DNA of 60,732 nucleotides, filler included, from Hausera hauseri (lineage: Eukaryota): NCBI GenBank assembly GCA_046269625.1. It is 11 parts of 11 records of this genome, joined end to end, with 100 filler letters (N's around TTAATTAATTAA, not from the genome) between each part and the next. Parts side by side here need not be neighbours in the genome. Positions count along the whole stretch, not along the records: positions 40,812 to 45,397 come from JBJURY010517015.1; 10 more parts are not named here. The stretch is one strand, 5' to 3'. Both the position numbers and the translations under genes were made by a program. The notes under the pieces are model-generated. The model was not told the DNA's origin. It ran no database searches and saw nothing but the letters and a program-made list of their open reading frames with translations. Positions within the stretch are counted from its first letter, which is position 1; each line of letters starts with the position of its first letter. This document shows positions 11,255 to 46,369 of the stretch, piece after piece.

Positions 11255-13564
11255 TTTCTCCTCCCTGAGCCACATGCTCGGATGTGCCTATTGCGTTAGG
11301 AGAGGTGACACCATCATTTGGACGTTGTAAGGCATTTAACCTCTCTCGTAAGTCGCTTTGGAAATTTATTCTTCTACTGGTTTGGGGATTTTGCTCCAAG
11401 TAATAAGCAGTAGATGCTTTTATCTCGACTACCCTATTATTTTCGCCACGAGAAAAGTATTTTAACTGGGATGCTTCTGCTCGGCATACTGGGCATGTCG
11501 TTTTTCCATTAATCAGCATCCATTGTTGCAAACAATCTCGACAGTGACGATGTCTACGGTTTTTGTTTGCTAGAATTACATAGCCTTGCCATAAATTGGC
11601 TTCGCATACGGGGCAAAGGTTTCCAGTGTCATTGTCCAGATCGCAATCTGTAACCTAATTTATCTCCTGAAATAATAATCCTTTTGGGTTCTTATACAGA
11701 TATCCATGCAATTGTTTCTGGTCGGTATCAATTGAACTTTTCCGTGGGTCTCCATTAACGGCTATTAGGGTTTACTCAATCACGGGTTGGACGTCTAGGT
11801 CTGGGATTCCCATTTTCTTATACTGTTTCTTTATCTCTATTTTGGTCTGGTTGTCAACTGGTACAGTTATTCTCTTAGTTCCTGTTTTCGACTTAAATAC
11901 TGGAGTTAGATATCTGCCTAACTTGAGGTCAATTTGCGCATAAGCATTTTCATGTAGTTCCAATACTGGCACTGTATGAATGTAAAATACCGCGTCTTTG
12001 ATCTTCCCCCGACTTACATATTCTGCCATTATCATGATGCTAGGGTGTTCTGCCGTGTCCTTACGGGCTTCTGTGGTAATTATTTCTTTGTCTTGTCCCC
12101 TTTTTAGAACATTCACTTCCGTAAGTTTCTCTGGTATATTTTCGGTAGGATGTTTTCTGATCTGTTCAGTTTGGGATGATCTTTTTTCTTTCCTCTTTAG
12201 AAATCCGAATATTGATTTCTTTTTCTTTTCTGGAGATGGGTCTCTCAGTTTGGGCTTTTTGGTTGATGCTCCTTGGTAGCTTTCCTCTCCTTTCTTTGTT
12301 TTTGTAGGTACTTGGAATTCATATGTAATAGTACTTGTTTTATGTTTGGTGGCATCCTTTTTGCTTGATGTTGTAATTTGCATATTATTGTCCCTTTTAG
12401 GTTCGACAATCCGTATTGGTGAATACGGTTGAAATTGTTTTCGGTAGCGGGAATCCAACTCCTTCGGTTTCCTGCTGCTTTGTAAGTTATTTTTGGGATT
12501 TAGTGACGACTATTCATGATCCCATTTGATCGTAGCGTAAACATCACGCAAATATTGGGTTCTTTTGGTAGCTGACAACTGTCGATTGATTCTGTGTTGG
12601 GTTTCGTTCATAATTTCTACAATTGCTTTGAAATGTGCTTCCATGGTCATGAGAACTAGTCGATTTACACTGTCAATCTTCTCCTTGATCTTAGGGTGAG
12701 CCCAAAATTCTCGTATCCCTGCTATATTTTTAGTATTTATTTTCAGTTTGTCTATTTGTTCCTGGACTTAAAATCCTGCGATCATACATCCGTATAAGCA
12801 GTGGTTTAGCTCCATTTCTACAATTTTGATGTCTTTCCCATTTACCAAATCTTCTTTTCTTATGCCTGTTATTTCCGCAAACGTTTCTTTCACTCTTTTC
12901 CGAGGGATAATCAATCTAGAGTAAACTTCTATCCCGTTCATATCTCTAATCAAAACTTCAATGGGAATGGAATTTCCGTCATCCCCTTCTCCTTAATTTG
13001 TTGAAATAATACGGACGTTCCGTCTGTCTTGTACCCGTTTGTATGATCCCAAATATTGATCTATCTCATCTTCTGTCGGATACTGATAGTATATCAGGGG
13101 AGGCAGGGGTATAGTTGGAATTTCCTCACAGGTGATTTCCATAATAAATTTTACAGGTAGGGATGCGATTCTTAACTCCACTTCTTTTGCCAAACTTTCT
13201 CCTTGTATCTTAAAGGTGCTGAACTTATACTGTCGTCCTTTGTTGGAATCCCAGTTTTGTTCAGTCAGTCGATAGTAAATTTCTCCTTCCGTCAAATGTA
13301 TGTATATATCATTGTTATGTCCTAGTTGGAATTTCAATAATTTTCTCAGATTATAAGCTCTGGCGTCTTCATTGTTCCTCATTGCATATAACATCAATAC
13401 TCGATTTTCTTTAACGATCCCACTTTATTATATTCAATCGCTATCTTGTTCTGTAGATCCATGTGGATATGTCTGTAGATGGATTTGGAGCTCGGGGTGA
13501 TTATGATTGCATTCTCTTACAAAAATCCGTCAATGTCCATACAAAAATTGCTGCTGGTCGCCAT
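11247..13564 (-). pseudogene. DEDDh-like pseudo-nuclease / RING finger fusion, disrupted
   Basis: Fragments 12993-13397, 12768-12953, 11772-12458 and 11247-11531 are colinear with the contig 5 protein. RING reads CPVC..RHRHCRDC..CPVC. Several stops and at least one frameshift. Confidence 0.75.
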
Positions 13565-13675
13565 ACTACTCACAAATCTGAAATAAAACAAATAAAGGTT
13601 AATCCTAAGACAGATCCTTGTTTCATTACAAAACAATTTTACTGTCTGATGATAGAATAACCTGACCTGTAGTTG

Positions 13676-14449
13676 TCAGGTTATTTTATCATATAAATCA
13701 CTTTGGTAAACCACCTTTATCCCTCCATCCTTATTTTTGCGCTGTTTTCTACAATTTTTGGTAACTATATAAAATGACGCAATTAATATTAATAAGACGA
13801 ACGCTGACACTCTAATAGTCGATATAATAGATGAAGTTGTTAATGCAATTGGTTTCTGTGTTATCATATATGTAGTAATTATGTTTTCTGTCTTGACTTA
13901 TTTGTAAATCTGGGTAATTACTTTCTGCTAAGGTGCGTAAGGTTATTGTCTTATTTTGCTTTCCTGCTGCATTAATTTGTATTATATATTCTGTCTGAGG
14001 TTTTAATGTGTTACATTCTGCTTGTCGTGTATTCTGTATAAGTTTTACTTTTTGTCTGTCATATAAGGTTCGACAGTTTATTTCTATATCGTAGTTCAGT
14101 CCTTCCTCAACAAAGAACACTATTCTATACTGATGGATCGAATATCTGATAGGTATGTTTTCAAATTTTACTTTACATATATTGTTAGTTGCAATAATTC
14201 GGGCGGCCGACTTTTTAGTCGAGGTTTCCATTGAAATTTTCAAAATTCTATTTTCTGGATAGTAGATTCGTAATTGTATACTTGGTTGATTGGGCCGTAT
14301 CTTGTATAAGTCGAATCTTATTTTGAATTCTTAATTCACGGGTATTTTACAACATGGATGTTGCACACCTGCACGGATGGAACAATATTCCATTTTCGGA
14401 GTTGGTCCTATTACTGCCTCGAATACGATGCTGATTTCCTGATTGACAG
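13676..14449 (-). pseudogene. FN3-like type-I membrane protein, frameshifted
   Basis: NTLKPQTEYIIQINAAG..ITLRT resembles the fibronectin type III LxPxTxY signature. Followed, in a shifted frame, by TM VSAFVLLILIASFYIV and basic tail KNCRKQRKNK. Confidence 0.6.
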
Positions 14450-19102: not shown

Positions 19103-19404
19103 TTTAACCCGTCTGGGTCTCCGTCGTATGCCGGTAAATTCAAAGAATCAAACGTAAATATATCCAGTTTCTGTGCCAAAACTAGGTTATCCACTGCCAT
19201 TTTAACCTTGTTTGGTTTGTCTACTTTAATTTTAGGAACTTTAAATTCTTTGCCAGAGGGTAATTCAATATCAGATAAACAGTGTTTATCTATTACCTTA
19301 TCTTTGGTATAAAGTTTATTACGTGTTTCTCTTTGATTGAGTTTCTCCTTGTCGTTTACTAATAAGTTTTGATTTGAATTGAACCTATCAATGTTTGCTC
19401 TCAA
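19103..19404 (-). CDS. gag: Probable gag N-terminus (truncated by contig end)
   Basis: Open frame downstream of the PBS containing LPAYDGDPDGL, like the LPxFDGxP start of Gypsy capsid domains. ATG candidate at 19200 (MAVDNLV). Confidence 0.55.
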
Positions 19405-19554
19405 TTTAATTTACTTAGTCCCTTCTAACCACTTATAAACCAAATTTAGATTCTCTTAACTCTTATTGCATAACGATTATTTGGTGTAATTGGCGCTATT
19501 CGCCATTATGTCTTTAATTGACTCTCAAAAGTAATGTCTAGAGAGGTAAAAGCT

Positions 19555-19572
19555 GTCCTGCTAGGGTCGCCA
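19555..19572 (-). promoter_or_regulatory. Primer-binding site, tRNA-Arg-like
   Basis: TGGCGACCCTAGCAGGAC, 18 nt, 2 nt after the LTR-terminal CA. Complementary to a tRNA 3' end GUCCUGCUAGGGUCGCCA resembling animal tRNA-Arg. Confidence 0.8.
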
Positions 19573-19574
19573 AA

Positions 19575-20324
19575 TGTTACAGTTGGGGTGCCCCTTACCG
19601 TCTCCCACTATAACAATATTTATTAAAAGTTTAGTTTCTCGTGAGCCGGTTAGGACTATTCGTTCTCGAATAGTCGAATGTACCTTATATTTTAAGACGT
19701 TAGGTAAATTATTCACAACTGCTGGTACTGCTTGATAAAACACTGCGTGCTTTAGTTAATAAATTCTAGTCCTACTTATGGAGTTTAAGTAAAATTTTAA
19801 CCTTAGGGTAGTATAAATCGTATGGAAGAGACGATGGAAAAACTATATAGAAAGTTGAAAATAATAAACTTAAAATAACCTTTATTCAGTGAACCCGGTA
19901 ACAACTTCAATATAGAAAAACACAGCTTCGATTGGATTAGTCAATAACAATAAAGTCTTTTAGAGTTTCTTGAATCAACTCTAAAGTCGTCCGACAACTA
20001 ATTTCGAAATTCTAACTTCTCATTCTCGTCTCTAATGGGGCTGTTTATATAGTTGAAATCAGGAATTCCATTACTAATTTTTCTAAATTTATTTACATTA
20101 CTAATCTAATTTTCATGGTTTTTATCCATTTTCTAAATTTATTTGCATTACTAATATACATTCCGACTATTCATATGTCAATTAAATTCTGTGTCAGTCT
20201 TCGTATATCTGGAAATCATTCGCTGAATGCAATTATATCTGATTACAAATTTTCTAAATATATTTCAATTACAAATTTTGTGTTTGAACTATACATTCCT
20301 TATGTTTATGTCGACTCTGCTACA
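19575..20324 (-). repeat. Complete 750-bp LTR
   Basis: Starts TGTAGCAG directly after PPT AGGGAGAAGAAA (20325-20336) and ends CTGTAACA before the PBS. Contains TATATAAA (about 20043-20050) and a downstream AATAAA (19881-19886). Confidence 0.88.
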
Positions 20325-22728
20325 TTTCTTCTCCCTGAGCGGCATCCTCGAAGGAGCCTATTGCGTCAAAAGAGGTGGCGCCCAATGTTCTAGGATGTCT
20401 CAAGAGGACTAGTCTTTGTCTCAAATCACTCTCAGAATCCGTTCTATTTTGATTATGCGCAGGGTTTGTTTCTAGATTATAACTAAGATGGGGTTTAATA
20501 CGTATCACTCGAGTGTAACTTCCATCCGCATAATATTTCAGGTCCGTGGCCTCCGCCCGACATACTGGACACGTTGTTTTTCCATTTTCGAGTGTTTATT
20601 TCTCTAAACAATCTCGGCAGTATTTGTGGCGGCAGATTTTATTATCTAATACTACATATCCTTGTTTTAGGTTACCGTCACATACAGGACATTCGTTGTC
20701 TTCTTTGTCTTAATCATCTCTATCCAAGTCTACCTGGATTGTGAATTCAATCGGTTCAAATACAAGACCGTCCTTGTCTTGATATAGATATCCATGGATC
20801 ACTTTTTGTTGAGGGTTAATTGAACTTTTCCTTGGATCTCAATCCACTTGTATTAATGTCCAGTCCGCCAAGTAGTCTCGATCTATATCTGGAACTTTTC
20901 CTTCTACACGATACTTTTGATATTGTTTTTTCAACAGTATACGGATTTGCTTGTCCACTGGGACTATTATTTTTCCTGTCCTCTTTGAACGGAAAATTGA
21001 GGTAAGGTGGTTTCCTAACTTTGGGTTTTCCCAGACATACGTATTTTCAAAAACCTCCCTGGCTGGGACAATTTTAATATAGAACATCGCCTCTTTAATC
21101 GTTTTCTTGCTACAATACTCAGTGGTTATCAGCATCCTTTGGTAATTTTGAGTTGTTTTGTGGTGGATATTTTCTTCAGTCCTTTTCTGTAGCAAAACAT
21201 TGATCTCAGTTATCATCGATTTCGTTTTCTTTACAGGATTATGCTTTTGGGAGATATTTGGTTCAATTCGTTGGTGTTCTCTCTTTTGTTTCTCCTCTTT
21301 TCTTTTCTTGAATAGATAGTTATAAATAGATGGCTTTTTCTTTATTTGTTGCTCGTCTTCCAATTTTTGTCTTTTCACTTTTGTTTCTGATTTTAATTCT
21401 TCTTTGCGCCCTTCTAAGAATTTTGGTGTTTTACTAGGTATTTTATCTTCCTTTCCAATTTCTGGGACTTGTGTTTTGTTTTCTTCCTGCTGTTGTATAG
21501 TGATCATAAGACTACGCTCATTCATTTGTAAAACAGCTTTGATCGGGGAGTAAGATTTAATATTCCGTCTATATCTGATATCTATTTGTTCGGGTTTTAG
21601 GGAACTATGTAAATTATCTGTGGGGTTTCTCGGGGCCCATTCATGTTCCGACTTTAACAACTTGTAGATTTCTTGTAAATATTTGGAACGCTGACTAGCC
21701 GTCAAGAGTCTTGGAATTTTGTTTGAGTCCTTTTTCATTGCTTCAATCATTAGTTTAAAGAAGGCTTCTGGGGCGGTTGGTCGATTTCTCCCTTGTACGG
21801 TCCTCTCCATTCGTTCTTGAACTATTGGGTGGGTGTCTATTTCCCTAAGTCCGGCAATATTCGCATCGGATATTCCTAATAGCTCGATTTCTCGTTTTAC
21901 ATTGTATCCCGTTATCATACACCCGTAGATGCAATGGTCTAACTCAGAACGGACCTGTTGAATATCTTTCCCGCTTATAAGTTGTTCTTTTCTTAAACCG
22001 GTTACTTCCGCGTATGATTCTTGAACGTGTTTTCGGGGATTTATAATAGTGGAGTAAAGCTCCGTTTTATCCCTTTCTCTAATAGATACTTCGATAGGTA
22101 CCCCATAACCATCGTCTCCTCTGCCACAACTTATTGCCATAATTCTTATGTTGCGGCTATCTTTAACTAATCTATATGACTGACGGTGTTTGTTTTTTTC
22201 TACTTCGATTGGAATTTGTTCAAATTCTAGAACTGGCAAGCCGAAGTTGCAGTTCTCTCTATAGGTTACTTCAAACATATGTTTAACAGGCAGGGCTGCA
22301 ATTCTGAATTTAAAGCCGTAGTCAATGTGTTCTAACCTTTTTTTACTTATTCTAAATGTACTAAAGCGATATTGGCGCCCTTCGTCAGATTTCCATGTTT
22401 GACTTTCTATTTTATAATATAGTTCGTTGTCGGCTAAACGTATGTATATATCCTGAATTTTCACTGGTCGATATCTGATTAATTCCTTTAAAGAATGTGC
22501 TTTTGCTTGGTTACCTTCACGCATCGTGTAGAGGTAAATCGCACGGTTTTCTTCTGTGGTGCCCTTCAAGTCATTTGGTATTTCGTTTACATTCCGATAT
22601 TCGACGTACATTTCTGTTCGTAGTACGTCATTTATCCTTCTGTATATAGCTTTTGATTTGGGAATAAAGACTGTAGCGTATCCTTGTAGGAATTCGTCGA
22701 CTCTAATTCGGCTGATCATACTTACCAT
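20320..22728 (-). pseudogene. About 800-aa protein: novel N-terminal domain + DEDDh-like domain + basic linker + C3HC4 RING
   Basis: The 629-aa ORF continues in frame through three stops into CPVC..CRHKYCRDC..CPVC and ends AQGEEM* over the PPT (2409 nt, one frame). DEDDh-like core IEVSIRERDKTELYSTIINPRKHVQESYAEVTGL..DIQQVRSEL..MITGYN. Confidence 0.78.
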
Positions 22729-22762
22729 TCTGAAAGAAAATACAAAATAAGGGTCAGTCCTA
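22720..22762 (-). promoter_or_regulatory. Splice acceptor (branch point, pyrimidine tract, CAG) followed 4 nt later by a donor consensus
   Basis: ACTGAC CCTTATTTTGTATTTTCTTTCAG|AATG|GTAAGT. The homologous site in contig 3 (13568-13605) reads ATTAAC CTTTATTTGTTTTATTTCAG|ATTT|GTGAGT. Confidence 0.65.
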
Positions 22763-22830
22763 AAACAAAGTATTGTTCTGAATCTGAACCAATTCTTTGT
22801 CTGATGGTGGAATAACCCGATCTGTAGTTG

Positions 22831-24200
22831 TCAGATTATTCCATCATTGATTTCGTTCTGTGGTACCATCACCCTTAATTCCCTCTCGGTGATTTTATGA
22901 CGCTTACTACAACAGTTTTTGGTGACCAATTGGCAAAACGCCATAAGAATTAAAGAGCAAATATTGATGTCTCAATAATTAATATTACTGAGAGTTATCC
23001 CCTTAGTTAGTTTTTCAGTTTTAACGGTAGTTGTAATTTCGCCTTCCACTTCCTCATTAGTTAGCAATTTCATTAATACAATCTCGTTTAACGTTCGTAC
23101 CGTAAAGGTTTTACTTCGTCTACTCTCTGCACTTATTTGTATTACGTAGTTGGTTTTTGGTTTCAATTAGGTACATTTGATTCGATGACTGTCTTTAACT
23201 AATGTTACTTTCTGATTATTATGCACTGTTCAAAAGCTTATTTCTACGTCGTAATTAAGTGCTTCTTCCACAACGAACGTCATTTCATATTGCTGTGTCC
23301 AATATTTTATAGGAATTGCTTCTAGCTCCTTTTAAGGTAATCCAGTCGTTTGTAGGAATTTTGTGGAAGTTGAAGTAGGTTTATTCATTTTCGAAGTCGT
23401 AATTCTTCTGGTTGTTGTTTCAAGTGGAATTCCTCAAATCGGATTTTTCAATTGGTAACTTCCTAAGAATATACTTGACTGGTTCGGCCGAACTTCATAT
23501 AGGGCCAGTCAAATTCTATATTTATATCCCTGAGATAACTTACAACATATGTTCGGCCTTCCGGCGTCGATCTGACAATACTGTTGGTTATAAGCTGTTT
23601 TGTCCACTCTCAGGAATTCAACCGTAATTACTCGTCCTTTAATCAACCGTCCTTTTGTGTTTATTTGGATACAATTATCTTTTAGGTTTTCCATTATACT
23701 CGCTATATTTTCGTCTAATATCCGTTTTAATGGGTCAGTGGATTTAAACATGTCTTCCAGTTCTATATTTAGATAATATCCATAAGTTTGTGGTATAACT
23801 AATTGTGAATTCAAATTTATTTCGGATTGTACTTCATTACAGTTCGGTAAATATGCACGATAGCTGAGAGCGTAAGAATGTCCTTACTCTACGTTGCAAC
23901 AAGTTGTATCGTCCTCTGGCTCGAATTTACAATCAGACTAGGTTTGGCTTAATAAGTCACGGAATAGTATCCGGATTTGCCCCTCATGTAATCCTGGTAA
24001 CCTAAACCCGACACATGGGGCTTCTGGCGAAAAATAATCTAATTTTATTGTTCGTAAAAATTTTTCGTCCTTTTGTTCTGGTTTATGCTCGGGAGTTCCC
24101 TCCTTTTGTGGCGGCGGTTTTAATCCGACTTTCCTGATTCCATATATATCGCTCAACGAATTTTCATCTACCCACCATTGGGCGTTAGACTTAGGCGTTA
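22831..24200 (-). pseudogene. Post-integrase ORF ending in FN3-like domain and TM helix, disrupted
   Basis: Fragments 23938-24156 and 23509-23814 are in one frame across stops. LKPKTNYVIQISAES..FTVRT (FN3-like), then ISIFALLILMAFCQLVTKNCC. Homologous to 13676-14449. Confidence 0.6.
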
Positions 24201-24213
24201 GGGCAGCAATTAA

Positions 24214-25182
24214 TTATAAGGCTACGATTATCTGTGCGTAAGATGTCGGTCTTGTGGTGANNNNNNNNNNATGTTTGGCCGGTTTTATATTTGTTTTAAC
24301 CACTTTTTGGATTGATACGACTTCTTTACCATTTTTATTAACATGGACTGTTGTTGGCGTTGTACGGACGATTACATACGGTCTTCTTCCGGTGCGTGTT
24401 AATTTCAAGGACGTGACTTTCTTCGCGACTGGGTAACGTATATAAACCCAATTTCTTTTTTTCAAATCATGAGGTTTAATCTTTTTATCATATTGTTTTT
24501 TAAATTGTTCCTGATACTCGAGCGATAATGTCTTCGCAACCTCCCAGCACTTTTGTAATCTTGTCTGTAAAACTTCTGCGAAGTTTTGTTCTAGAGCCTC
24601 GAGGTTCGTTTCATATAGTGTCATACCTAGATCCGTGGGTAAGATTGCTTCTCGTCCGTACATAATAAAGAACGGTGTAAACCCCGTTGCTGGATGTGGG
24701 GTCGTATTGATTGCAAACTGTGTCCCTTCTAGGAATTCATCCCAATCCTTTTGGTCTTTTGTCACTACGGTTGATAATATTCGAATAACTGTTGAGTTCA
24801 TCCGCTCGACCATTCCATTACATTGGGGGTGGTACGCGGTAGTGGTTAAACGTTCGATTTCGAATATCTTGGTAATTTTTTCGCATAATTCGCTTGTGAA
24901 ATTCCTTCCTCTGTCCGTTAAAATTTGTTCTGGTGGTCCATATCTGCAGATAATTTTCCTTACCACTGCATCGGCAAGTATTTCTGCCTTTTGATCTAAT
25001 AGTGCCACCAGTTCGACGACGTGAGTTAGTCCATCCACGCATGTTAGGATGTATCTGTTATTTTTGTGAGTTTTCGGCAGGGGTCCTACTATATCCATAG
25101 ACATAGCTTGCATGGGTCTATCCGGTACGTTTATAGGTTTTAGTTCTGCTACGTAGCCTTTCGTTTTCTTCTGTTTTGTCGC
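24214..25182 (-). CDS. pol: Gypsy integrase (catalytic core and C-terminus; 5' truncated)
   Basis: MDIVGPLP, TDRGRNF, TTAYHPQCNGMVER (D,D35E), TGFTPFFIMYGRE, GPY-like RPY. Confidence 0.95.
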   Translation of the reverse strand, partial: ATKQKKTKGYVAELKPINVPDRPMQAMSMDIVGPLPKTHKNNRYILTCVDGLTHVVELVALLDQKAEILADAVVRKIICRYGPPEQILTDRGRNFTSELCEKITKIFEIERLTTTAYHPQCNGMVERMNSTVIRILSTVVTKDQKDWDEFLEGTQFAINTTPHPATGFTPFFIMYGREAILPTDLGMTLYETNLEALEQNFAEVLQTRLQKCWEVAKTLSLEYQEQFKKQYDKKIKPHDLKKRNWVYIRYPVAKKVTSLKLTRTGRRPYVIVRTTPTTVHVNKNGKEVVSIQKVVKTNIKPAKHXXXXTTRPTSYAQIIVAL

Positions 25183-25325
25183 NNNNNNNNNNNNNNNNNN
25201 NNNNNNNNNNNNNNNNNNNNNNNNNNTTAATTAATTAANNNNNNNNNNNNNNNNNNNNNNNNNNNNNNNNNNNNNNNNNNNNTCAAACGGTCAAATAATC
25301 AACTCGACGAAGGAGAACACGGTTT

Positions 25326-26520: not shown

Positions 26521-27134
26521 GTGGTTTGTTAGTGTTTTCGTTTCATCGATATTACTTATGGATTCAATTCATCTTTTATGATTTCATAGGATTAAGATAA
26601 AATATTTTCAATATTCAGTGTTTTATTAATGGTACCACTGCAGATCTTATTATGTTGTTCATAGTTTTCGTCACATGTGAAATCCAGTTCATCATATTTG
26701 CTATACATTTCATTTTGAATATTATCAACATTCGATTTACATTTCTTCACCAATGCATTATATGTTGGCTTGCATAAAAGCTTACATTTTACGTTCAACA
26801 GGGTGGACATTTTTTGCAATCTTCTTCAGCCAATTTAATAACAGCTGTGGCCTTTTGTCCGGAAATTTTGGTGGTCTTATCTTTGTAATGTATTTATTGG
26901 ATGGTTTAAAACAGAGACTGATACCACTAAGAATGATACAATTTACGAATAATTCTTCTGGCTATTGACACTATCGAGATTGAGTGGGGCTTCGTTGCGG
27001 ACGAATTGTTTTAGCGACAAATTTCGTCGAATGAAACTGGTGAATCGTTGTGAACTTCTTTCTGATAACATTTGCAATTGGACTGTGGTGGCGCCCGAGT
27101 CCGCGGCACCACACCGTCATATTCTAAATACCAC

Positions 27135-27655
27135 CAAAAATTTCCATAATTAAAAATTACAGCCAAATCAAAATGGGTGCCATATTCAAAATAACACCCA
27201 AAAATCAATCATTAAAATTACCGCCAAACCAAAATCGCTTTCATATTCAAAATATTACCCAAAATATCAATAATTAAAATTAGAACGAAATCAAAATGGC
27301 TTCCATATTCCAACAACACTCCAAAATATCCACCATTAAAATTACCGCCAAATCAAAATGGCTGTTATTCAAAATATCAACCATTAAAATTACCGCCAAA
27401 TCAAAATGGCTGTTATATTCAAAATATCCACCATTAAAATTACCGCCAAATCAAAATGGCTGTCATATTCAAAATATTACCCAAAAATATCCATCATTAA
27501 AATTAGAACAAAATCAAAATGGCTGCCATATTTCAATAACACTCAAAAATATCCACATTAAAATTACCGCCAAATCAAAATGGCTGTCATATTCAAAATA
27601 TCACCAAAAATATCCACCATTAAAATTACCGCCAAATCAAAATGGCCACCGCATT
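27135..27655. repeat. Minisatellite, about 9 degenerate units of 49-62 bp
   Basis: Recurrent AAAATATCCACCATTAAAATTACCGCCAAATCAAAATGGCTGTCATATTC. Confidence 0.9.
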
Positions 27656-30600
27656 TTAAATGTTTACCACTTCAAATATTCATCGAAAAGTCAATTAAAT
27701 TTCTCCAATTTGACCAAAAAACAAACACTGGTGCATAACAACACATTTTATTCGTCAACAAACCATCCAAATTAACAACAAAAACTATCCATGTATGTCG
27801 TACTACCCACTGACGAATTCTCCTTTTCCCATTTAATTCGTTTGTCGTGCAGAAGACCCCAATTTAAATCCGATCCTGTGCCAATTGTCGTCAATACGAC
27901 ATCAAACAAATTTACCCCATAAATCCGGCCGTTTAGCCTGTTCTTTTATTGCAGGCATCGGATGATATTGAATATATCTCGTCTGCCATGCCTGACACAA
28001 CCGTTGATGGCCTACAATATCCGGCACAGCGGCCTCTCTTTGGAAGAATTCGTACCGTTGATGATGCCCTGGTTCCAACACATGCTGCTTATACTGATAG
28101 ACAATAAATAATTATTTGTTCAATAATTTACTGTTAGTCTGTCCTCATACCAGTTGTGCAGTAATGTACTCGGTTCGTAAGTTTTCTTTGGTTTCCAATT
28201 ACCTTCTAACATTTGCAAATTTCAATTATCGTTGATTGGTAACAGAATTATTCAATTCACATAAACAAACGATATAATATATGATTTTGGATAATGGAAT
28301 CCGTGAAAAGGTGAAAGTTATTGAATTTAATTCAGATCACGCTTAAAATTGTTTAACTTATAATTAGATTTACTAATCCATTAGATTTACTAATTCTTGT
28401 CATTTCGTCTTTCAAAATAAGAGTATAATAAATGGCGAATTATTTTAATTGTAAATGTAGGAAATTATTATACTGTGTGGACCTTTTTAAGTGTTAAGTA
28501 TAAGGTAAATTATAGCACCTTATATTGCATAGGGCAGGAGCGAATTAAATTAGTAATTAAAATTAAGTAACAAAACTTTGAGCATAACGCTTAAAAAGAT
28601 ACACAGAGTAGATTCCACGAAAGGGAACGCAACACTATGAATCTTTATTAATGCACTTCTCTCGTGTAAAAGATAATTTCTTTTCATTTATAGTGCTTCT
28701 TACAACCTATTGTATACCAACGTTCGAAACTTTAGTAAGCCTGTTTCGATGTGACGATTTAACCTAAAAATCGATTTGTTTCACAGGAAAGAAGTTATTG
28801 TTTAAAATTTATCGAATTACAAAATGTCAGTACAAGTTAGAACACTCGACACGGGATTTTTTGATTGATCGTTCATTATTGGATCATTTTTATTTTTACA
28901 CCGAATTATTTTTGGATAGAACTGACGTATGAGAATCGTCAAAAAATGGTTTGAAAATATGTGATATTCTGAACTTTCAGTTTTTGAAAGTGTACTGAAG
29001 ACCGACATTTTGTATACTAGAAGCATTTGGAACAAATCGAGTTATTCCGAGCTTTGTTCAAAAATTTTATAATTGATTCGCTAAACCTCATTAAATGGTA
29101 TCGTTTTTGGTTATGTTGCAGGAATTGATGGCTTCTTTAATCTGTGATCTAATATCTGTCAAAAATCATAAATTCACGTTTGCATTAGGATCATAAGTCA
29201 GCTATCAAGTAATTTAGTGGACCATAAATTTCAAAATTTTGTTTGACAAAATATTTTTTTCATTTTTTATACTATAGAGTATAAAAATCTTTTTGAGGAC
29301 AATAATGTTGCAAATTTTTCGAAGCTGATATTTCGATCTTACTAAGATTTTCGTCACAGCACTAGTGTTGTTCATAATCCTTAAACGACCTCATGTGACG
29401 GGGAATAAATTCCAATTCATCCAATCGTCAAATTGACTTTTGTTTCAACTCATCAATTTAATTAAGGAGTGGGGTAGTGTACTGTTGCGCATAGCACGAA
29501 CTGCACTTGTAACATTGTTAAATACGTGAACGGAGTTTACGAATGTTGCTCACAAACCAGGGATAACTCATTCATGACATGTGACGTGTAACGCACTTTC
29601 CATTGGAAAGGTGCAGAAATCAAACAACAAAAAGAAATGCACACTACTGAATTTTCATTAGTCGTATGCACATAAAATGTGACATATGATATGTGACGAT
29701 TGAAATTCCAAATTTCAAATTGAAAACTGGCAAAATGAAATCAGTGGTTGTTTAGTACTTCATTAGTTGGTGGAAATGACACCAATGAAGTAGAAGTGCC
29801 GTCATCTTTTGCGATAACTTNNNNNNNNNNNNNNNNNNNNNNNNNNNNNNNNNNNNNNNNNNNNTTAATTAATTAANNNNNNNNNNNNNNNNNNNNNNNN
29901 NNNNNNNNNNNNNNNNNNNNACAGTTTACGTTCATTATTTGTTCATTCATTATCGATAGTTAATATTTATTGAAACATATACTATTGATAACAAATAGTA
30001 ATATATATAACAGTTATTCTTTTATATTCACTATTCAGAAAATATGCATTCAATTTTTAATGTGTTGTTGATATTCTGTGGAACTAAATTGTTATAATTT
30101 GTTTAAATATGCAGAATCTGATTTACTATTCAGATTCGAATATTCATTGAATAAAAAATTAATTAGTTTATTTACTACAAAAGTAATATTCAATGTCTAA
30201 TTTGTAATTGATGTTTTGTATTACTAACTAGATACCGGATATCATTGTTCTGATAGAAGTTTTGAAGAATTTCGCTCACGCGAATGGTTCTGTGCAAAAG
30301 CTTCACACTGATGTAAGTAGTTCGGCCATATTCCAAAATATCAAGACCTGTTTAAGTGTTACCATTAAATTATACTGGCCGTCGATTGTACTGTCGACCT
30401 CAGTGGTGCAACAGATAACTATTCAAGTACTTAAATGGAGAATATCTTTATCCGACGTAAAGCACTTTTTATGCAGTGTACGTGGAATTGGATGAGATTT
30501 CGGTAATCTTACAAGGGACACTAAGTTTACTTCTAAGAACAGATTTGATTGAAATTTTGCATGGTGGTGTAATTTGTTACGTTGATTCCATATGTGTAAA

Positions 30601-37220: not shown

Positions 37221-40200
37221 TTAGTGATGTGCATAGAACATTATCTTCCGTTTGGGCCTAACGTACTGAGGTTGGAACCCATGCGACACTGGATTCTTCA
37301 TCCAGACAAATTGGGTTGTACATAGAGTGTACATAGAGTTGTGATTTAGTATTCTGCAGAAAAAATCGCTATTCAACGCAACAAAGTGCTCCTGCGCTGT
37401 CCGGATTGTTTCGTCAGTGGGTGTTTCATCGCACTCCGCCAACTCCAACAATGTGCGCACTGGTGTACCAAAGAGTGCCTCGGATGGAAAGCAGCCAGTG
37501 GTTATGAATGGGGTGTTCCGCCATCCCAGTAGAATGTAAAGAAGAAAGTTTAGCCAGTATTGATTGGAGTCGGCTAGAATTTTTAGGGAGATTTTCATAG
37601 TACAATGAAAACACTCCAGTAGCCCATTCAACTGAGGATTATAAGGTGTTGTGTGAATATGCTTGATCCCCAGTCGATTTACTAATGATTTGAAAAAATT
37701 CGACTCAAATTGGGGCCTTGATCAGTGATTATGTACTTAGGTGAGCCGAATATGCTGAGCCACGTGCGAATGCAGACATCTGCAATTGTCTCAGTGTTAG
37801 TTGAGTAAAGTGGGATAGCTTCTAGCCATCTAGAAGCACGATCCATCATTGTGAGAATAAATTCATGGCCGTTGTCAGGTGGAAGAGGTCCGACTATGTC
37901 CATGTGGATGGTGTCGAAACGTGATGTGCAGGGAAAATGATAGGGTGACGGCTTGAGGTGTTTTTCATCTTTAAACTTCTGGTATGCCGCACACTCCCTA
38001 ACCCAATCCTGCACATCTGTTCTTACTGATGGCCACATAACTTGGCGTTTAAGAAGGCGATAAGTAGCTTTGGATCCTGGATGATGCAAGGAATAGATAT
38101 TGGTGAATGCAATTTTTTGCAAAGGAGGTGATAGAATAATTTTAATAAACCCAGGATTAGAGGAGTCCAAAGATACTCCATCAATGATTTTGTAAGATTT
38201 GAAGGCGGAGAGAATCAACTCGTCTGGAAGGTTCTTTCGGAGTAACTCATTATTAAAAATGGTTGCAAATGTAACCGAGTCGACGGAACGCGACAATAAA
38301 TCAGCCGCTAAATTGTCAACCCCCGAAATATGTTTTATTTCGAACGCGAACGTTGAGAGATACGAAATCTGTCTCTCTTGACGTGGTGATGGGGATTTCG
38401 TGGTGAGAATATGAAGTAGGGGCTTGTGATCCGTTTGAATGGTGAATGTGCGTGAAATTAGAATATGTTTAAAATGCTTTAATGCTAGGACCACTGCAAT
38501 AAGTTCCATGTCTAAAGTCGAATGGCGTTGTTGGACTTTCGAGATATCTTCTTGAGAAGAATTCAAGAGGTTTATGGGAACCGTCCTTCAATTGATGCAG
38601 TACTGCGCCTGCTGCTATTGTGGAAGCGTCAGTTGTTAAGAAAAGTTCTGAATGTGGATCAGGGTATGCAAGGATTTCCACAGTTCTTAAATTATCCTTG
38701 AGGTGATGGAAAGAATTGACTATGTGGGCAACCCAGTGAATAAACTGTTTCTTTTTACCGGAGCTCAGTGAGGCAAATGGTGTCGTTAGTGTTGAACAGT
38801 GAGGCACGTACTTGCGCACGAAGTGAAGCGTTCCAAGGAAAGCGCGCATTTCTGTTGATGTGCGTGGTAGTTGGACATTTTTGAGTTGAGTGATGCGATC
38901 TTGCTGGGAAGAGTGGCCAGATTGGGTGATAACGTGTCCAAGAAAGTTGATTCTATGTTGAAAAAACAGCATTTAACAAAGTGTACTTAAAGGTTGTTCT
39001 GGTGCAAGCGTTGGAAAGTTATGCGGAAATGTTCGGCATACTCTGGGGGTGATGACGCGATAAGAGTGTCATCTATATATTGAAAAGCAAAGTCTAGTCC
39101 GGCAAAAATTGTATCAATGTGTCTCTGGAATGTCTGTGAGGCACAGCGAAGCCCAAAAGCCATATAGACATTTGAAAAAACCTCGTGGTGTTATTACAGC
39201 CGTTTTCGGTATGTCAGCCGGAGCAACAGGAATTTGGTTATATGCCTTATGAAGATCGATGGACGAAAAAATTGTTTTACCATGCAGTCTTTGCAGGATG
39301 TCGTTGATCATAGGTAATGAATATTCGTCCATGATTGTAATGGTGTTTAGTTGGCCATAGTCACCACAAGGTCTGAAGGTGCCGTTCTTCTTGGGCACGA
39401 CGTGCAATGTTGATGCCCATGGTGATTTGGAACATCCGATGATGCCAGCGTTCTCTAAAGTCTGAAATTCATTAGCAACGGCTTTTCTGCGACGTGTTGA
39501 AAGAGGTCGCACTTTATGCCGAATTGGACGTTGATGAGAGGTAACAATGTGGTGAAATGTGTTGGAGTAATGCTTAAAGAATGGATATTTTTTGAGAGTT
39601 CTTTGGCATTGAGTGGTGACAAATGCTTGAAATTGGATGAGAGTTGGATAAAGGATGATGATGACATGGACACTTTATCATTGGGTACGGTAGTTTTTGA
39701 GATGATGTTGCCCGAAGAGGAAAACTCATTACTCTCAACGCTCGAAATATAGGTATTCGAGGTGTCATAATGTACAAGATTATTTACAAAATTTTTATTT
39801 TTTGAAATTATTTTGATATTCGGTCTTATAAATGAATCGCACGCTGGTGAAATTGAATGTAAAACTGATGAAACTGATAAAATTTTGGAGGAAGGGCTTT
39901 CCATCAAACGATGGTGTCTACAATCGACCAGTAAATTGTAATGTGAAAGAAAGTCTGATCCAAGGATTGGACTTTGCGCACTGGCTATTGTGAATTTCCA
40001 AGAAAAAAGTTCAGAGAAACCTGATATGGAAAAGGAAAGATTTGTTGTGACAATGGTGCGCAATGGTTCACCATTGGCTGTAAATAAGGGTTTTCTGATT
40101 GAAGAAGATTTTTGCGATTCATAAGAAAGAGGAAGAAGTGAGACTACAGCTCCAGTATCAATGAGGAAAGAGATGGAAGAATTTTTAGAAATAATGGTAG
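37221..40200 (-). pseudogene. pol: pol (PR-RT-RH-INT) of the CsRn1-clade element
   Basis: ORF fragments 39455-40063, 39114-39512, 38469-38972, 37682-38566 and 37221-37631 carry consecutive pol motifs. Confidence 0.88.
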
Positions 40201-40293
40201 CTTGCAGTGTGAAGACAGCAAAGAATGCATTACGGCTGTTTAATGAGGCGCTTTAGCCTTGATCAAAAGTTGCCGTGACTTCTGGTGGTGTGG

Positions 40294-40653
40294 TTAGTTT
40301 TTTGATGGCGTTGTTGGGTTTGACTGTGCCGATGAATTGTAAAATTTACAGCCTTGTATGCACTTGCGAGCATTGTCGCGAAATTTATTGTGATAAATGC
40401 AGACGGCCTCGTTTGATATCAATCTTTGATTGTAAAATCTGCATCCTATGCAGCATTTATTTGCGTTTTTCTTATATTTGGAGTGAAAAAAGCAGGTCAG
40501 GCCGCGCATAGGAGAAATGTTGCACGAATAACAACACGATCTTGTGGGGAGCTGTTGATTCTCAGAAAAAAATTTGCATCGCACTGTCATTTGTTTGAGC
40601 TTATCTTTGATGGCTGAAATTGCTTGTCGTAGTGCGACATTCTCTATGTGCAA
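40294..40653 (-). CDS. gag: gag C-terminus with tandem CHCC zinc motifs
   Basis: CFFHSKYKKNANKCCIGC and CIYHNKFRDNARKCIQGC. Confidence 0.75.
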   Translation of the reverse strand: MHIENVALRQAISAIKDKLKQMTVRCKFFSENQQLPTRSCCYSCNISPMRGLTCFFHSKYKKNANKCCIGCRFYNQRLISNEAVCIYHNKFRDNARKCIQGCKFYNSSAQSNPTTPSKN

Positions 40654-40811
40654 TGATTGAAGCTGATTATCAGTGTTTGTTATTGTGTTTTGATTATGTA
40701 TTACTAGCTTTNNNNNNNNNNNNNNNNNNNNNNNNNNNNNNNNNNNNNNNNNNNNTTAATTAATTAANNNNNNNNNNNNNNNNNNNNNNNNNNNNNNNNN
40801 NNNNNNNNNNN

Positions 40812-41850
40812 TCCGAGGACCACGGATTGAAATTCATTAAGAAGCAAATGCTCTCTCGATGCAACGTAGTAATGTATGCCACTAACTATGAAGCATTTTT
40901 TGTGGCAGAGGCCGAAATCACTACCTTCACTTTGGAAACAAAAGACGTAAGAATAGAAGATTATTTAAAGAATAGAGACGACTTCTTCTATTATAAAGGA
41001 CAAATTGGACTAGGAGAATTATATCACAAGATGATTGCAAATGATTGTAAATTGGATATGGAAATCATGAAAACTAAACTGGCCGTAATCTATGCGAATC
41101 CAGAACTAGCATCTCCCTTAATTCCAATGAAAGAAGGTATTTTTGGAAGAGTCACCGGAGAGGTACTGTTGACCTACGAATGCGAAAAACTAAACGTATC
41201 CTTAAATGTGGAAGAAAAACGCTGTATCCAAGAATTGCCAGTCATATATCAAAACGTACCTCGATTGGCTATGCCACTCACTAGAGTCTTACTAGAAAAC
41301 GCGACACAACCAACTATTTTGAAAGAATGCAAAGCAGGGTTAGGCGAACCCATGTTTAAGAGAAGTGAGACAGATTGGGTAAGTCTGCCAAATGGAGGAA
41401 TCATAGCTACACCTAGCAAATTAACCGGAACGAACTTACTAAAAGGTATAACAGACGACAAGTTCGCTGACACCGCGAGTAAAGGGATTTACAGACCAAA
41501 AGAGATTGGAGCTTTTAGACAATTTCTAGCCTTCTCTCGACAGCGTACACATGAGCTAAATAGAGCCATGTCTACGGTGATGGATGACACTCGCTACCAA
41601 GCAAAATTGAAATCCTTACTTGGCGTTAACCATTATCAGAGAGTTACTACAGAAATTTTATATAAGATCTGGGGAAGATTTCTAATTTTCGGACAAGCTG
41701 CATCACGATTTTTAGCCATCTACTTCATGGTACAACTCGTAAAGGCTATAATACAATCTATCATAAATGGATATGAAATATTTACTCTAACCGGATTTTC
41801 GTGTAAAATCTTAACGGCAATCATAACGCCGTTTGGAAAATTTCTGAAAG
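40812..41850 (+). CDS. env: Chuvirus-like envelope glycoprotein (C-terminal ectodomain and TM), N-terminal part of the polyprotein
   Basis: LYHKMIANDC..EGIFGRVTGEVLLTYEC..CIQELPV..PLTRVL..C..W..GIY..IWGRFLIFG + hydrophobic segment + IINGYEIF..GFS follows the conserved motif order of chuvirus/jingchuvirus glycoproteins. Confidence 0.8.
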
Positions 41851-42485
41851 CTTACGAAGAAAACAAATGGAAAAGCGACGTGGAGAGACATGTCGGTTAC
41901 TATAATCGAAAACGGAAGAGAAAATCTATATTTTTTATAAGCCAAAGAAGCACAAAATCTCGGAAAAACAATTCAGATGATGACGAGCCTAAGGGAGGAA
42001 ACGCAGTCTCTAAGATGAGCAATCGTAAGGCGCTTAGGCCGCCTTTACCAATGCTTCCCCCTTCGGCGCCGCAATACGAAGACAGCGACAAGAGATCTAT
42101 TAACTCTTACAGCTCAGACATCTACCGGAAACCCTTCAATTATGAAGATCCCTATGAAGGGACAAAACAATACGGCGTGTTACGGAAAATGTACCGAACC
42201 AGAGAAAAATCCGAATTATGTCGCCAACCGGCAGATGATCGCAAGATAATATATTCTCCAAGGATTTCACGGAATATAGAAACTAAGTCATTAATTTGGG
42301 ATAGTCCACGAATGCAATCTTTCCAAGAACCACTAATCAATACGCCAGATCGAGACAATGAAAACAATGTAACTAATGGATTGTATCCCATTGAAGAGCT
42401 AAGACAAGTAGCCGAGAATAAAGCACCAGAAATTAGTATAAATGGATATAAGATATCCGTCGTTAAACAATCTAAGATAAAAGAA

Positions 42486-43916
42486 GGTAGACCCTTCGCC
42501 AAAATCAGTATTGAGGATTGGGAGGTTTACGCACTAGTAGATACCGGATCAGAAAGATCATTTATAAAGGACAGATCGATACCAAAAACGTTGCGAAATC
42601 AATTGCGACCACCACTTGCAACTGATCCCGGAAGTATAGGAGCTTTCGGACAAGAATCAAGGCCAAAATTCAAATGGAACCCTAACCTAAAAATAATGGG
42701 ACAGAAGTTCCAGCATGAATTCTCTATAATGGAACATTTAACGGACGACGTAGTAATCGGGTGTGATATATTAAGACGTCTGACAAACGTCGCAATAGAT
42801 CTAAATACCTCGAAGTTAATCGAACTCGGACCGATAAAAGGGACTAAAGTCAATAAAGAAAGAGAATCCGGAGAAGTATGGATTCCGGTCGACGAAAACA
42901 TTCCGCCTAGAACGGAATTGTTAATATTTGCACAAATCTGTCAAGACGATGACATACCAGTATATTTCGAACCAAAAGAAACGCTAAACCCGAGTGTAAT
43001 ATTAAGCAATATATTAACCCGAGTAGCATCCGGTCGAATACCTGTAAGAATAGTGAATAATGCTCAAACTCCAGTAAAATTATATGCCAATACTACTCTA
43101 GGACATACTTACAAAGCATCAGCCATAACAGTCGAAGAGAAGCCGTACAAATACGCAGAATTTCCACCGCACGTCGACACAAAGTTTTCGCCAGAAGCTT
43201 ATTGCCAATTTTACGAATTATTATGTCGATATAAATCAATTATTGCAAAAGACGAAGAAGACATAGGCCGAGCAAAGGCATTGAAACTAACGATACCACT
43301 TAAGAAAAAGCCTGAATCCAATGATGAAATTGATCTCGAGGAACAGAAAATGCCAAAATGGTATCCGCCACCGCATTCCCTAAGACCGGAAATAACCAAG
43401 GAAGTAGAACGTATGTTAAAGGCCAATGTAATTCGACCCAGTTTCAGATCATGGTATTCACCTATTCTAATGGTTAAAAAGAAAGGAACTACGAAACATC
43501 GATTTTGTATCGATTATAGAGCATTGAATACACTCATGTTGAAGGACTCTTTCCCTCTACCATCCGTAAAAGAAGCGTTAGATAGACTCTCGGGTGCAAA
43601 ATGGTTCACTACGCTGGACTTACAATCAGGATATTGGCAGGTCGAGATCGAAGATGAGGATCGTTATAAGACCGCGTTTAAGACGCATGACGGCGTATAC
43701 GAATTCAACGTTATGCCATTTGGAATTACCACTGGACCAGCCATATTTACCAGGATGATGAACAAGATGTTAATGGGACTTGAACATGCATTTGCGTACT
43801 TAGATGACGTAATGATTGCATCCAAAGACGAAAAAGAGCATTTAAAGGATATTGAGGACACTCTAATGAGATTAGAACAAGCTGGGTTGAAACTAAACCC
43901 GAAGAAATGTAAATGA
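42486..43916 (+). CDS. pol: Aspartic protease, dUTPase-like spacer domain and reverse transcriptase
   Basis: ALVDTGS (42531), VVIGCDIL; IPPRTE..IPVRIVN..KLYANTTLG; RFCIDYRALN, LDLQSGYWQ, MPFG, YLDD (43797). Confidence 0.95.
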   Translation, partial: GRPFAKISIEDWEVYALVDTGSERSFIKDRSIPKTLRNQLRPPLATDPGSIGAFGQESRPKFKWNPNLKIMGQKFQHEFSIMEHLTDDVVIGCDILRRLTNVAIDLNTSKLIELGPIKGTKVNKERESGEVWIPVDENIPPRTELLIFAQICQDDDIPVYFEPKETLNPSVILSNILTRVASGRIPVRIVNNAQTPVKLYANTTLGHTYKASAITVEEKPYKYAEFPPHVDTKFSPEAYCQFYELLCRYKSIIAKDEEDIGRAKALKLTIPLKKKPESNDEIDLEEQKMPKWYPPPHSLRPEITKEVERMLKANVIRPSFRSWYSPILMVKKKGTTKHRFCIDYRALNTLMLKDSFPLPSVKEALDRLSGAKWFTTLDLQSGYWQVEIEDEDRYKTAFKTHDGVYEFNVMPFGITTGPAIFTRMMNKMLMGLEHAFAYLDDVMIASKDEKEHLKDIEDTLMRLEQAGLKLNPKKCK

Positions 43917-45397
43917 GCTCAAAACGCCGTATCCTACCTTGGTCATATAGTTGGCGAAGGAGGATCAAAACCAGATAAATCATTACTGAACAAAATTTCT
44001 GACTGCATGGAACCGCAGAACCAAAAAGAACTAAGACATTGGTTAGGTCTATGCGGATATTATGCGACCTATGTGCCAGATAACTCAAAAATCAACGCAC
44101 CATTATACCGATTGTTAAAAAAGGGAATAAAATGGAAATGGACCGACGTTGAACAAAAGGCATTCGATGAAATGAAGAAAATATTAACTAGCGAACCAGT
44201 ACTGAGATACCCCGATTTTAACTTACCATTTATTATTAAAACCGACGCAAGCAAAGAAGGTATCGGATATGAACTAGCACAAAAGCGCGAAGACGAAGAA
44301 TTAGAACACCCAATTGCTTATGGAGGACGCTCCCTAAAGAAAGCAGAGAAAAATTACTCAGTGACAGAACTAGAAACTCTAGCAGTAAAAGAAGCACTGA
44401 GACATTTCAACGTATATGTATATGGACAAAGGATAATAATAGTTACCGACCATAAGGCAGTGACAACTCTAAAAGGACGAGCAAATAATCCTACATGTAG
44501 ATTAAATCGGTGGATCGAAGAAATATCAAGATACAATATAGAATTCCAATATAAACCTGGTGCAAAACACGTGGATGCAGATGCATTGTCCAGGTTGAAG
44601 ACAAAGGCAAGTGCCATCATGACAATGAGGAAAAATCAACTTGAAGAACTGATTGATAGACAACGAACTTTAGCATCGGACGGAGCAATCAGAATTTCGA
44701 ATGAACAAAGGACGGACCGAGTTATTCAACAAATCATTGAATATGCCGAAACGGACGTGATGCCGAAGGGACACCAGTTAAAGAAACATTTACAACGATA
44801 TGGACACAAATATTGTGTATCTGAGGACAAAGACAATGAAAAAGTGCTGTACTACCAGCGAAAAGGAAGAAAATTGGTAGTTATACCCAAAATTCTACGA
44901 ACTGAAGTTCTAATGGCCGAACACGATTCGTATCTAGCTGGTCATATGTACTGGAAGAAGACGTTAGAAAGGGCAATGAACAAATATTATTGGCCTAGTA
45001 TATACATTGATGTGAAAAATTGGGTAAGCGCCTGCGAAGTATGTGCAACGAAGCAAAGGAAAATGCGAAATTACATAGCAGAGTTGAAACCGATAGCTGT
45101 ACCGGACAGGCCGATGCAAGCCATGACGATGGACATAGTAGGACCACTGCCCACGACGCACAAAAATAACAAATATATATTAACATGCGTCGATCGTTTA
45201 ACTCACTTCGTAGAGTTAATAGCGTTATATGATCAGAAAGCAAACATTAGCTGAAGCCGTAGTAAGGAAGATTATTTGTAGATACGGACCACCCGATCAG
45301 ATACTAACCGATCGAGGAAGGAATTTCACTAGCGAACTATTCGATAAAATTACGAAAATATTCGAGATCGAGAGATTAACTACAACAGCTTACCATC
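43917..45397 (+). CDS. pol: RT connection, RNase H and integrase (same frame, after the premature stop)
   Basis: YLGHIV, TDAS, YSVTELE, TDHK, ADALSR, HHCC (EHDSYLAGH..CEVC), MDIVGPLP, TDRGRNF. Confidence 0.93.
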
Positions 45398-45658
45398 NNN
45401 NNNNNNNNNNNNNNNNNNNNNNNNNNNNNNNNNNNNNNNNNTTAATTAATTAANNNNNNNNNNNNNNNNNNNNNNNNNNNNNNNNNNNNNNNNNNNNAAA
45501 TCAAACAATCCTTTTCTGCATCACACAAATGAATTTTAATTTATTATTTAAAAATTTTAATTCGTTTTTTTCATAATTTAAAAATATGCCTAATTAAAAC
45601 AATTTCCAAAAAATAAAAACCAATAATATTTCATATAAATAAAAAATCAATAAATAAA

Positions 45659-46369
45659 ATGACCATTTCCATAAAAATCGTAACAAAACATTTTACAATG
45701 TACAAAATCATTTTATTCATTTTACTCATTTCAACTGAAGCCGCAAAATCAACATACCGTTACGAATTGGTCAAAAGTTTTCCATTGACCAAAAACGAAC
45801 CATTTCGATTCAAATTTTTTTTCTCCGATAAAATGGATAAAAGAAATTCCGATTTAATGTTTGTACTTTATTCAAATTGGCCAAACATAGTCGATTATAT
45901 TTTGTGTACAGAACATAAAACTATTCAATTATTCAAATTTGGTAGTAACTACATACGATCAAGGAATTGTGAAAGAACAAATAAATCCATCAATGTTGAT
46001 ATTACATTCAAACATTATGCTGAGGGTATGAGATTGAAAGTGTTCTACATAAATAAAGGATCTGTGACAAATCGCAGGAATTTCATCATGAGTGCAGATT
46101 ATTTCACAAAGAATGAAGTAATTGAATATGACATTTCTCTAATGCATCTAAATGACAAAGTAGAAACTACAATCAATACAACAAAACCATTTGTCAAACA
46201 ACCAAACAATTCCAACACAATTTTATTCATTCCAATAATTGTTGGATGTATTCTGATTGGTGTGCTAATTGCATTGATTATTGTATTGATTATTGTCTGT
46301 ATTTATCGACAGAAGAAAATGATCAACAAAAGTGACGTTCCAGAAATGAAATATTCAATCAATGTATAA
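45659..46369 (+). CDS. Hypothetical type-I membrane protein
   Basis: Intact 236-aa ORF in very AT-rich DNA. Signal-peptide-like MYKIILFILLISTEAA and long C-terminal TM ILFIPIIVGCILIGVLIALIIVLIIVCIY + RQKK. Confidence 0.65.
   Translation: MTISIKIVTKHFTMYKIILFILLISTEAAKSTYRYELVKSFPLTKNEPFRFKFFFSDKMDKRNSDLMFVLYSNWPNIVDYILCTEHKTIQLFKFGSNYIRSRNCERTNKSINVDITFKHYAEGMRLKVFYINKGSVTNRRNFIMSADYFTKNEVIEYDISLMHLNDKVETTINTTKPFVKQPNNSNTILFIPIIVGCILIGVLIALIIVLIIVCIYRQKKMINKSDVPEMKYSINV

Follow-up and report, generated by a model that had tools for sequence, protein, structure and literature searches.

The window analysed here, 60,732 nt in all, strings together short contigs with N-TTAATTAATTAA-N spacers between them, so adjacency across a spacer carries no meaning. 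The features described below are encoded on the + strand of one 4.6 kb contig (40812–45397; Table 1), which reaches neither gag nor either LTR and also stops short of the glycoprotein's first half. A single reading frame, uninterrupted from position 40812, where the contig begins, ends at a stop at 43914–43916 and encodes, in order, the second half of the glycoprotein, a membrane anchor, a linker of 210 aa, a retropepsin and most of the RT. RNase H and integrase are located after this stop and the copy is broken, both by the stop and by a frame change near 45240.

Based upon Pfam matches the contig displays the PR-RT-RH-IN order of Ty3/gypsy (Metaviridae) elements. A gB-like env precedes the protease in frame, as it does in the GAG-ENV-POL gB-type errantiviruses and Burro-like elements, and by its sequence the element is a broken, Burro-like env-pol Ty3/gypsy element. 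Assignment to the Troyka LTR elements was rejected, since Troyka, in the part of its description available to us, is without an envelope protein (PMC12440569) and the window element has a glycoprotein.

Table 1. Features of the env-pol contig, in window coordinates (family counts are from the best 150 of 487 relatives)
Feature	Position	Strand	Basis
Env-pol fragment contig	40812–45397	+	N-TTAATTAATTAA-N spacers flank both ends; tblastn match of relatives begins mid-glycoprotein at 40812
gB-like (class III, Monjiviricetes/chuvirus-type) fusion glycoprotein, C-terminal half	40839–41867	+	PF24664, E 9e-40
Predicted transmembrane helix, single	41709–41765	+	Sole segment with mean hydropathy >1.6
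Amphipathic helix and basic cluster RKRKRK, after the transmembrane helix	41907–41924 (RKRKRK)	+	Helices in structure model
Disordered linker, ~210 aa, putative cytosolic glycoprotein tail	41850–42479	+	pLDDT <50; no Pfam family at E 10
PSAP, TSG101-type late-domain motif, in proline-rich patch	42060–42071	+	Sequence; family enrichment, 22/130 tails
LYPIEEL(RQV), ALIX-type YPX3L motif with predicted helix	42381–42410	+	Sequence; [LIVM]YP in 67/130 tails
Retropepsin protease (RVP), catalytic DTGS 42540–42551	42483–42782	+	PF00077, E 2.6e-7
Conserved spacer, protease to RT	42852–43151	+	Alignable among 8 relatives and the window
RT, RNase H, integrase	43473–45396	+	Pfam RVT_1, RT_RNaseH, Integrase_H2C2, rve; tblastn

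Related elements, copies and other contigs

The gag-env-pol order is already published (PMC6431247, PMC13524379). In the planarian giant Ty3/gypsy elements Burro/GYPSM1, a mononegavirus-glycoprotein-like Env is described in frame between Gag and protease, and Burro proper as exceeding 30 kb, with an ORF of ~4,900 aa carrying MATH, BCL2-like, BIR and ankyrin domains (PMC6431247). The window element resembles Burro, as described there, in having env before the protease, and may share its extra domain between protease and RT. The candidate is the conserved spacer, which gave neither a Pfam nor a PDB sequence match and by its position corresponds to Burro's dUTPase-like domain. It differs from Burro in that Gag, the BCL2-like and other upstream domains, the LTRs and the full size all lie beyond the window contig. 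GAG-ENV-POL errantiviruses with an HSV/gB-type ENV have been reported from Platyhelminthes, Nematoda and Bryozoa by Chary and Hayashi (PMC13524379), and these share with our element a gB-type env ahead of pol in a Ty3/gypsy background; as available to us that study analyses ectodomains, and the window copy is broken and partial.

The element was matched in one public run (X1) by 12,316 contigs at at least 80% identity, including many diverged copies; no RNA run was listed as containing it. The 3′ end of a sister subfamily is present on the − strand of the window (19103–25182; ORFs 24214–25230 and 20839–22830), its integrase DNA being ~76–79% identical to 45045–45395. The integrase is followed by an ORF of 663 aa which has no Pfam match, resembles by eye a nuclease-type accessory protein and contains a PTAP at 21780. 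A decayed paralog of this accessory ORF occupies 11247–14330 (− strand), with a RING-like cysteine pattern at 11247–11654. The contig neighbouring the env-pol fragment carries a second decayed Ty3/gypsy element (37221–40755, − strand) with no visible env. Elsewhere in the window there is a tandem repeat array with a unit of ~62 bp (27116–27660) and, on another contig, a 250-aa ORF (45617–46369, + strand) that has a membrane anchor at its C-terminus, a signal-like segment and no Pfam match above cut-off.

The glycoprotein tail and its two motifs

Foldseek comparison of the modelled glycoprotein part with PDB gave herpesvirus gB in 38 of the 39 matches listed, the remaining one being baculovirus GP64. 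The best E value was 0.007 and none fell below 0.001 among the matches listed, which amounts to a weak but consistent resemblance to gB. A hydrophobic segment at the end of the ectodomain occurs once in 9 of 10 relatives examined and twice in P0011, and a signal-like hydrophobic segment ahead of the ectodomain passes the threshold in six of eight fused proteins examined. The sequence-only reading took the linker to be disordered and the model agrees, with pLDDT <50 over most of model residues 383–534; a short low-confidence helix directly follows LYPI. With one anchor upstream and the protease-RT region downstream, the motif site is predicted to be accessible and disordered, and is probably cytosolic.

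The same reading had placed a PSAP and an LYPxxxL motif between glycoprotein and protease, and both are present there in the + frame open from 40812: PSAP inside PPLPMLPPSAPQY (42039–42077), and LYPIEEL (42381–42401) inside GLYPIEELR (42378–42404). Their description there as lying just upstream of the protease is apt for the YP motif, at a distance of 52 residues from the catalytic Asp; for PSAP, at 160 residues, it does not hold. The 108 residues separating PSAP from LYP are the longest of 16 such spacings in the family comparison (best 150 of 487 relatives). In the window P[TS]AP occurs on the + strand only at 42060, and on the − strand in the single PTAP mentioned above.

Both are core late-domain matches. 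Of the extended ALIX consensus (L)[FY]PX1-3LXX[IL], taken from PMC2803184, the window sequence misses the last position, having V for I/L. Retroviral Gag is an established case of ALIX and TSG101 binding to motifs of this kind (PMC8402826), and in HIV p6 a helix follows the LYP of the long form (PMC2803184). The linker resembles HIV-1 p6 (PTAP and LYPX3L) and EIAV p9 (LYPDL) as described in these sources in its motif classes and in their location on a disordered segment. It differs from them in that its motifs, candidate late domains by sequence, stand 108 residues apart on the tail of a fusogen, in one chain with the protease, and vary in order and presence within the family. In HIV, p6 ends Gag, a chain that does not include the protease.

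Residue shuffling of the 210-aa linker yielded P[TS]AP with a probability of 0.005, LYPx1-3L with 0.005 and both with 1.5e-5, and both anywhere in the ORF with 1e-3; these single-locus values are post hoc. The caution that short motifs can arise by chance was well placed, as 35% of the linker shuffles contained some loosely defined late motif and 15% contained [LIVM]YP, and a single copy thus cannot decide the matter. One may ask whether both motifs are accidents of a linker rich in proline and tyrosine, a view that also accommodates the failure of PSAP to be retained in the nearest relative, P0002 (33% identical). This protein has PPSAY at a weakly alignable spot in the first third of its linker (alignment p 0.007, uncorrected for 14 comparisons). 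Against this, only 2% of shuffles place YP in the zone used by the fused relatives, and P[TS]AP, expected in 0.5% of window linkers by chance, has a family rate of 7–17% (best 150 of 487); we consider coincidence very improbable. Among the copies in run X1 the motif codons showed no variants in the 40 of 1,526 variant rows listed, a small sample, and one contig skips 41934–42072, PSAP included.

Motif frequencies across the glycoprotein family

Relatives numbered 487 in a full HMMER search with an E cut-off of 0.001, and the analysis used the best 150. The end of the glycoprotein was located by profile, and 130 proteins with a tail of at least 25 residues were kept; 20 that were truncated or too short were dropped. 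The 130 comprise 14 glycoprotein-protease fusions and 116 stand-alone glycoproteins with no protease behind the tail. Two long stand-alone tails were cut at 250 aa, and P0023 was not counted as fused, its DSG protease match being false. Since the glycoprotein part by itself retrieves all 130 at E <1e-8, the motifs of the query did not select the sample. The null model was residue shuffling, which ignores natural dipeptide bias, a doubt that the natural-sequence controls reduce but do not remove.

Within this sample (best 150 of 487), 21 of the 116 stand-alone tails contain P[TS]AP compared with 1.0 in shuffled tails (maximum 7), 58 contain [LIVM]YP compared with 4.3 (maximum 12), and 14 contain P[TS]AP and YP together compared with 0.3. 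The 14 fused linkers gave [LIVM]YP in nine (0.7 expected), YP in 12 (3.2 expected) and P[TS]AP in one (0.04 expected). Relatedness does not explain this enrichment. The glycoprotein halves of these relatives have a median identity of 26%, and the excess persists with one pick per 40% identity cluster (P[TS]AP 9.7 versus 0.4, [LIVM]YP 25.8 versus 2.3; 50 clusters, from 125 proteins with a near-complete glycoprotein half). In addition the tails are mutually unalignable, with one pair among 131 at E <1e-3, and the P[TS]AP carriers are dispersed over the glycoprotein tree. Comparing linkers across related elements, to which the sequence-only reading had looked, bears out YP as above chance but finds PSAP in a single fused linker, among tails that largely cannot be aligned.

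The 88 YP sites of the best 150 relatives have L, I, V or M at position −1 in 66 cases and L, I or V at position +3 in 60, a pattern of the EIAV LYPDL type as described in PMC2803184 and PMC8402826. The long form of the window, YPX3L, is a minority form (2 of 14 fused, 9 of 116 stand-alone), and the strict pattern YPX1-3LXX[IL] is found in 2 of 14 and 0 of 116, respectively, in the same set. In stand-alone tails PTAP precedes YP in nine cases and follows it in four, so the p6-like order initially proposed is not fixed; 40 of the 130 tails possess neither YP, P[TS]AP nor PPxY (both counts again from the best 150 of 487). The motifs were also seen in named viruses among the 30 proteins looked up: the G of Neuropteran chu-related virus OKIAV150 (PSAP, then LYPKI), gp2 of Fushun oxya chinensis chuvirus 1 (PTAPLYP) and the G of Amblyomma dissimile mivirus (PTAP). 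The fused relative P0010 has PSAP followed by LYPHL.

Natural-sequence controls were flat. Reversed motifs showed no excess in the tails of the best 150 relatives (PA[TS]P 0, PY[LIVM] 1), nor did late motifs in the ectodomain halves (0 and 14 versus 0.7 and 21), upstream of the glycoprotein in 5,583 aa of 12 polyproteins (0 and 2 versus 0.06 and 1.8) or downstream of the first protease over 13,895 residues (1 and 9 versus 0.2 and 7.0). Many of the upstream regions are partial, and the lack of late domains in Gag is for this reason a hint only. PPxY was not clearly enriched in the tails of the best 150 relatives (8 versus 3.1, maximum 10), and the same holds for SH3-type proline motifs and basic clusters in the tails. 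In alignment A3 the LYP position seemed to show an almost unchanging proline; this was discarded as an aligner artefact, Y preceding it in just 12 of 109 rows. The YP peptide, searched against PDB sequences, gave chance matches only; word-based homolog searches returned none for the window and, with P0010 as query, only P0010 itself, and scans of metagenome, genome and viral contigs for related loci found no relative.

As many viral glycoprotein tails carry YxxΦ tyrosine endocytosis signals, LYPIEE and the YPxL sites might be of this ordinary kind. YPx[LIVM] is a subset of YxxΦ, and YxxΦ is enriched overall (67 versus 31 of 115; best 150 of 487). The whole excess, however, has proline directly after the tyrosine, as Y[^P]xΦ in the tails is at the shuffled level (28 versus 28.4; best 150 of 487), and the window motif, with E at +3, is not YxxΦ at all. 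Since P(T/S)AP would also be left unexplained, we give the endocytosis signal very little credence.

The window sequence shares 31–33% identity with its best-matching relatives and takes a basal position among the best 150 of 487, within a clade of 13 that includes fused relatives (SH support 0.88). In a set of 15 distinct fused proteins that counts the window element, 12 have YP 29–56 residues ahead of the first catalytic Asp. Retropepsins cleave aromatic-Pro bonds, and from this position one might suppose that Y-P is the site at which the element's protease releases itself, PSAP being incidental. Yet none of the 15 protease-like sites further along these polyproteins is preceded by [LIVM]YP (a count with two near-duplicate rows and one probable false site), so the YP motif tracks the glycoprotein and not the later protease copies. 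In the best 150 of 487 relatives it is equally enriched in the 116 tails that have no protease behind them, while [LIVM]FP is not enriched (1 of 14 fused, 1 of 116 stand-alone). A cleavage site as the sole function of YP thus appears quite improbable; dual use, as late domain and cut site, is possible.

Budding, sorting and the possible role of the tail

Given the family enrichment, the unalignable tails, the flat controls and the fact that YP follows the glycoprotein, the tail motifs look selected, most likely for binding of ALIX and TSG101. YP appears to be their conserved core, and P(T/S)AP a second motif that is gained and lost. With moderate confidence we suggest that PSAP and LYPIEEL, which recur far above chance in the tails of gB-like glycoproteins, recruit TSG101 and ALIX to cut the necks of budding particles. 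The sequence-only reading saw in the linker an ESCRT module attached to the glycoprotein tail; the family statistics lend this strong support, on a broader scale than was claimed, although the likeness to p6 is looser.

Such a module might operate as follows. An internal signal segment of the Gag-Env-Pol polyprotein would send the ectodomain into the ER lumen, and the one anchor of the predicted topology would return the chain to the cytosol, so that the tail, with protease, RT, RNase H and integrase, would hang from the glycoprotein. Clustered tails would then present YP and P(T/S)AP late domains to ALIX and TSG101 at the assembly site, ESCRT-III would cut the neck of the budding particle, and the protease would later free Pol.

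The main rival to a role in budding is that the motifs do bind ALIX and TSG101, with the effect of sorting the glycoprotein, and Pol with it, into multivesicular bodies, exosomes or lysosomes and not of releasing virions. The cellular receptor PAR1 is a described case, in which ALIX binds a YPX3L motif and sorts the receptor into MVB vesicles (PMC3341166). Here too the motifs are on the tail of a membrane protein, every enrichment result fits equally, and sequence by itself does not separate sorting from budding. What tells against sorting is the pairing with P(T/S)AP (14 of 116 versus 0.3; best 150 of 487), which mirrors the combination described for viral budding (PMC8402826), and the Gag regions without late-domain excess, which leave the tail as the only visible carrier. 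On balance we regard sorting as unlikely and prefer recruitment for budding.

Late domains have been seen on a viral membrane protein before. NS3 of Bluetongue virus is described as a membrane glycoprotein whose cytosolic PSAP serves for TSG101 and which drives budding (PMC6949946); it differs in being non-structural and unrelated, whereas in the window the carrier is the fusion protein itself. In foamy virus, budding is reported to need Env and yet the PSAP is on Gag (PMC3705266). Chuvirus glycoproteins and the env of the BEL/Pao element Anakin belong to the same family, PF24664, and the named chuvirus proteins share the tail motifs; they differ in that, as described, their glycoprotein is stand-alone and ends in the tail (PMC7642597, PMC10084718). 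The layout reported for chuviruses is NP-Gly-RdRp, to which some add another particle protein (PMC7642597), and with such a layout a self-budding glycoprotein would be useful.

More tentatively, and with rather more doubt than confidence, one could suppose that budding, a role of Gag or matrix, has passed to the cytosolic tail of the chuvirus-type gB-like fusogen. The tail would then be a platform of ALIX and TSG101 motifs with fast turnover, through which chuviruses and Gag-Env-Pol retroelements would exit as enveloped particles and which in the retroelements would also carry Pol into the particle.

Neither the type of element nor the classes of motif are new; what the literature searched does not report is their union. 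No report of late domains in the tails of gB-like retroelement or chuvirus glycoproteins was found in that literature, subscription journals being outside its scope. The words "ESCRT", "late domain" and "budding" have no occurrence in the main text of PMC13524379 and are likewise absent from the main texts of PMC7642597 and PMC10084718; the account of Burro, in the part of PMC6431247 available, mentions no late domains. Recruitment for budding is normally the task of a capsid or matrix protein, and here, if our reading is correct, it would be that of a fusogen tail. To the capsid, matrix and accessory proteins that carry late domains a fusion protein would then be added, and this throughout a viral order and the retroelements related to it. 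This bears on whether env-bearing Ty3/gypsy elements outside insects release particles and on chuvirus budding, of which no description was found in the literature searched; the tail motifs offer a concrete lead for both.

Several of the relatives have peculiarities of their own. Behind the glycoprotein tail P0002, P0003, P0005, P0006, P0007, P0011 and P0152 have two to four tandem retropepsin-like domains, and some fused relatives have a further one after the integrase; P0152, of 4,844 aa, also contains ankyrin repeats. Just ahead of the glycoprotein signal segment P0002, P0009 and P0016 display, by eye, a WxxxxGGW motif, which we take to be BCL2-like, as described for Burro. P0004 (HBK71150.1) is a Gag-Env-Pol polyprotein recorded from a Flavobacteriaceae MAG and probably represents animal DNA in a bacterial bin. 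In P0125 the family glycoprotein stands behind immunoglobulin domains and has PTAP and LYPNL in its tail, which may reflect either host co-option or a gene-model fusion.
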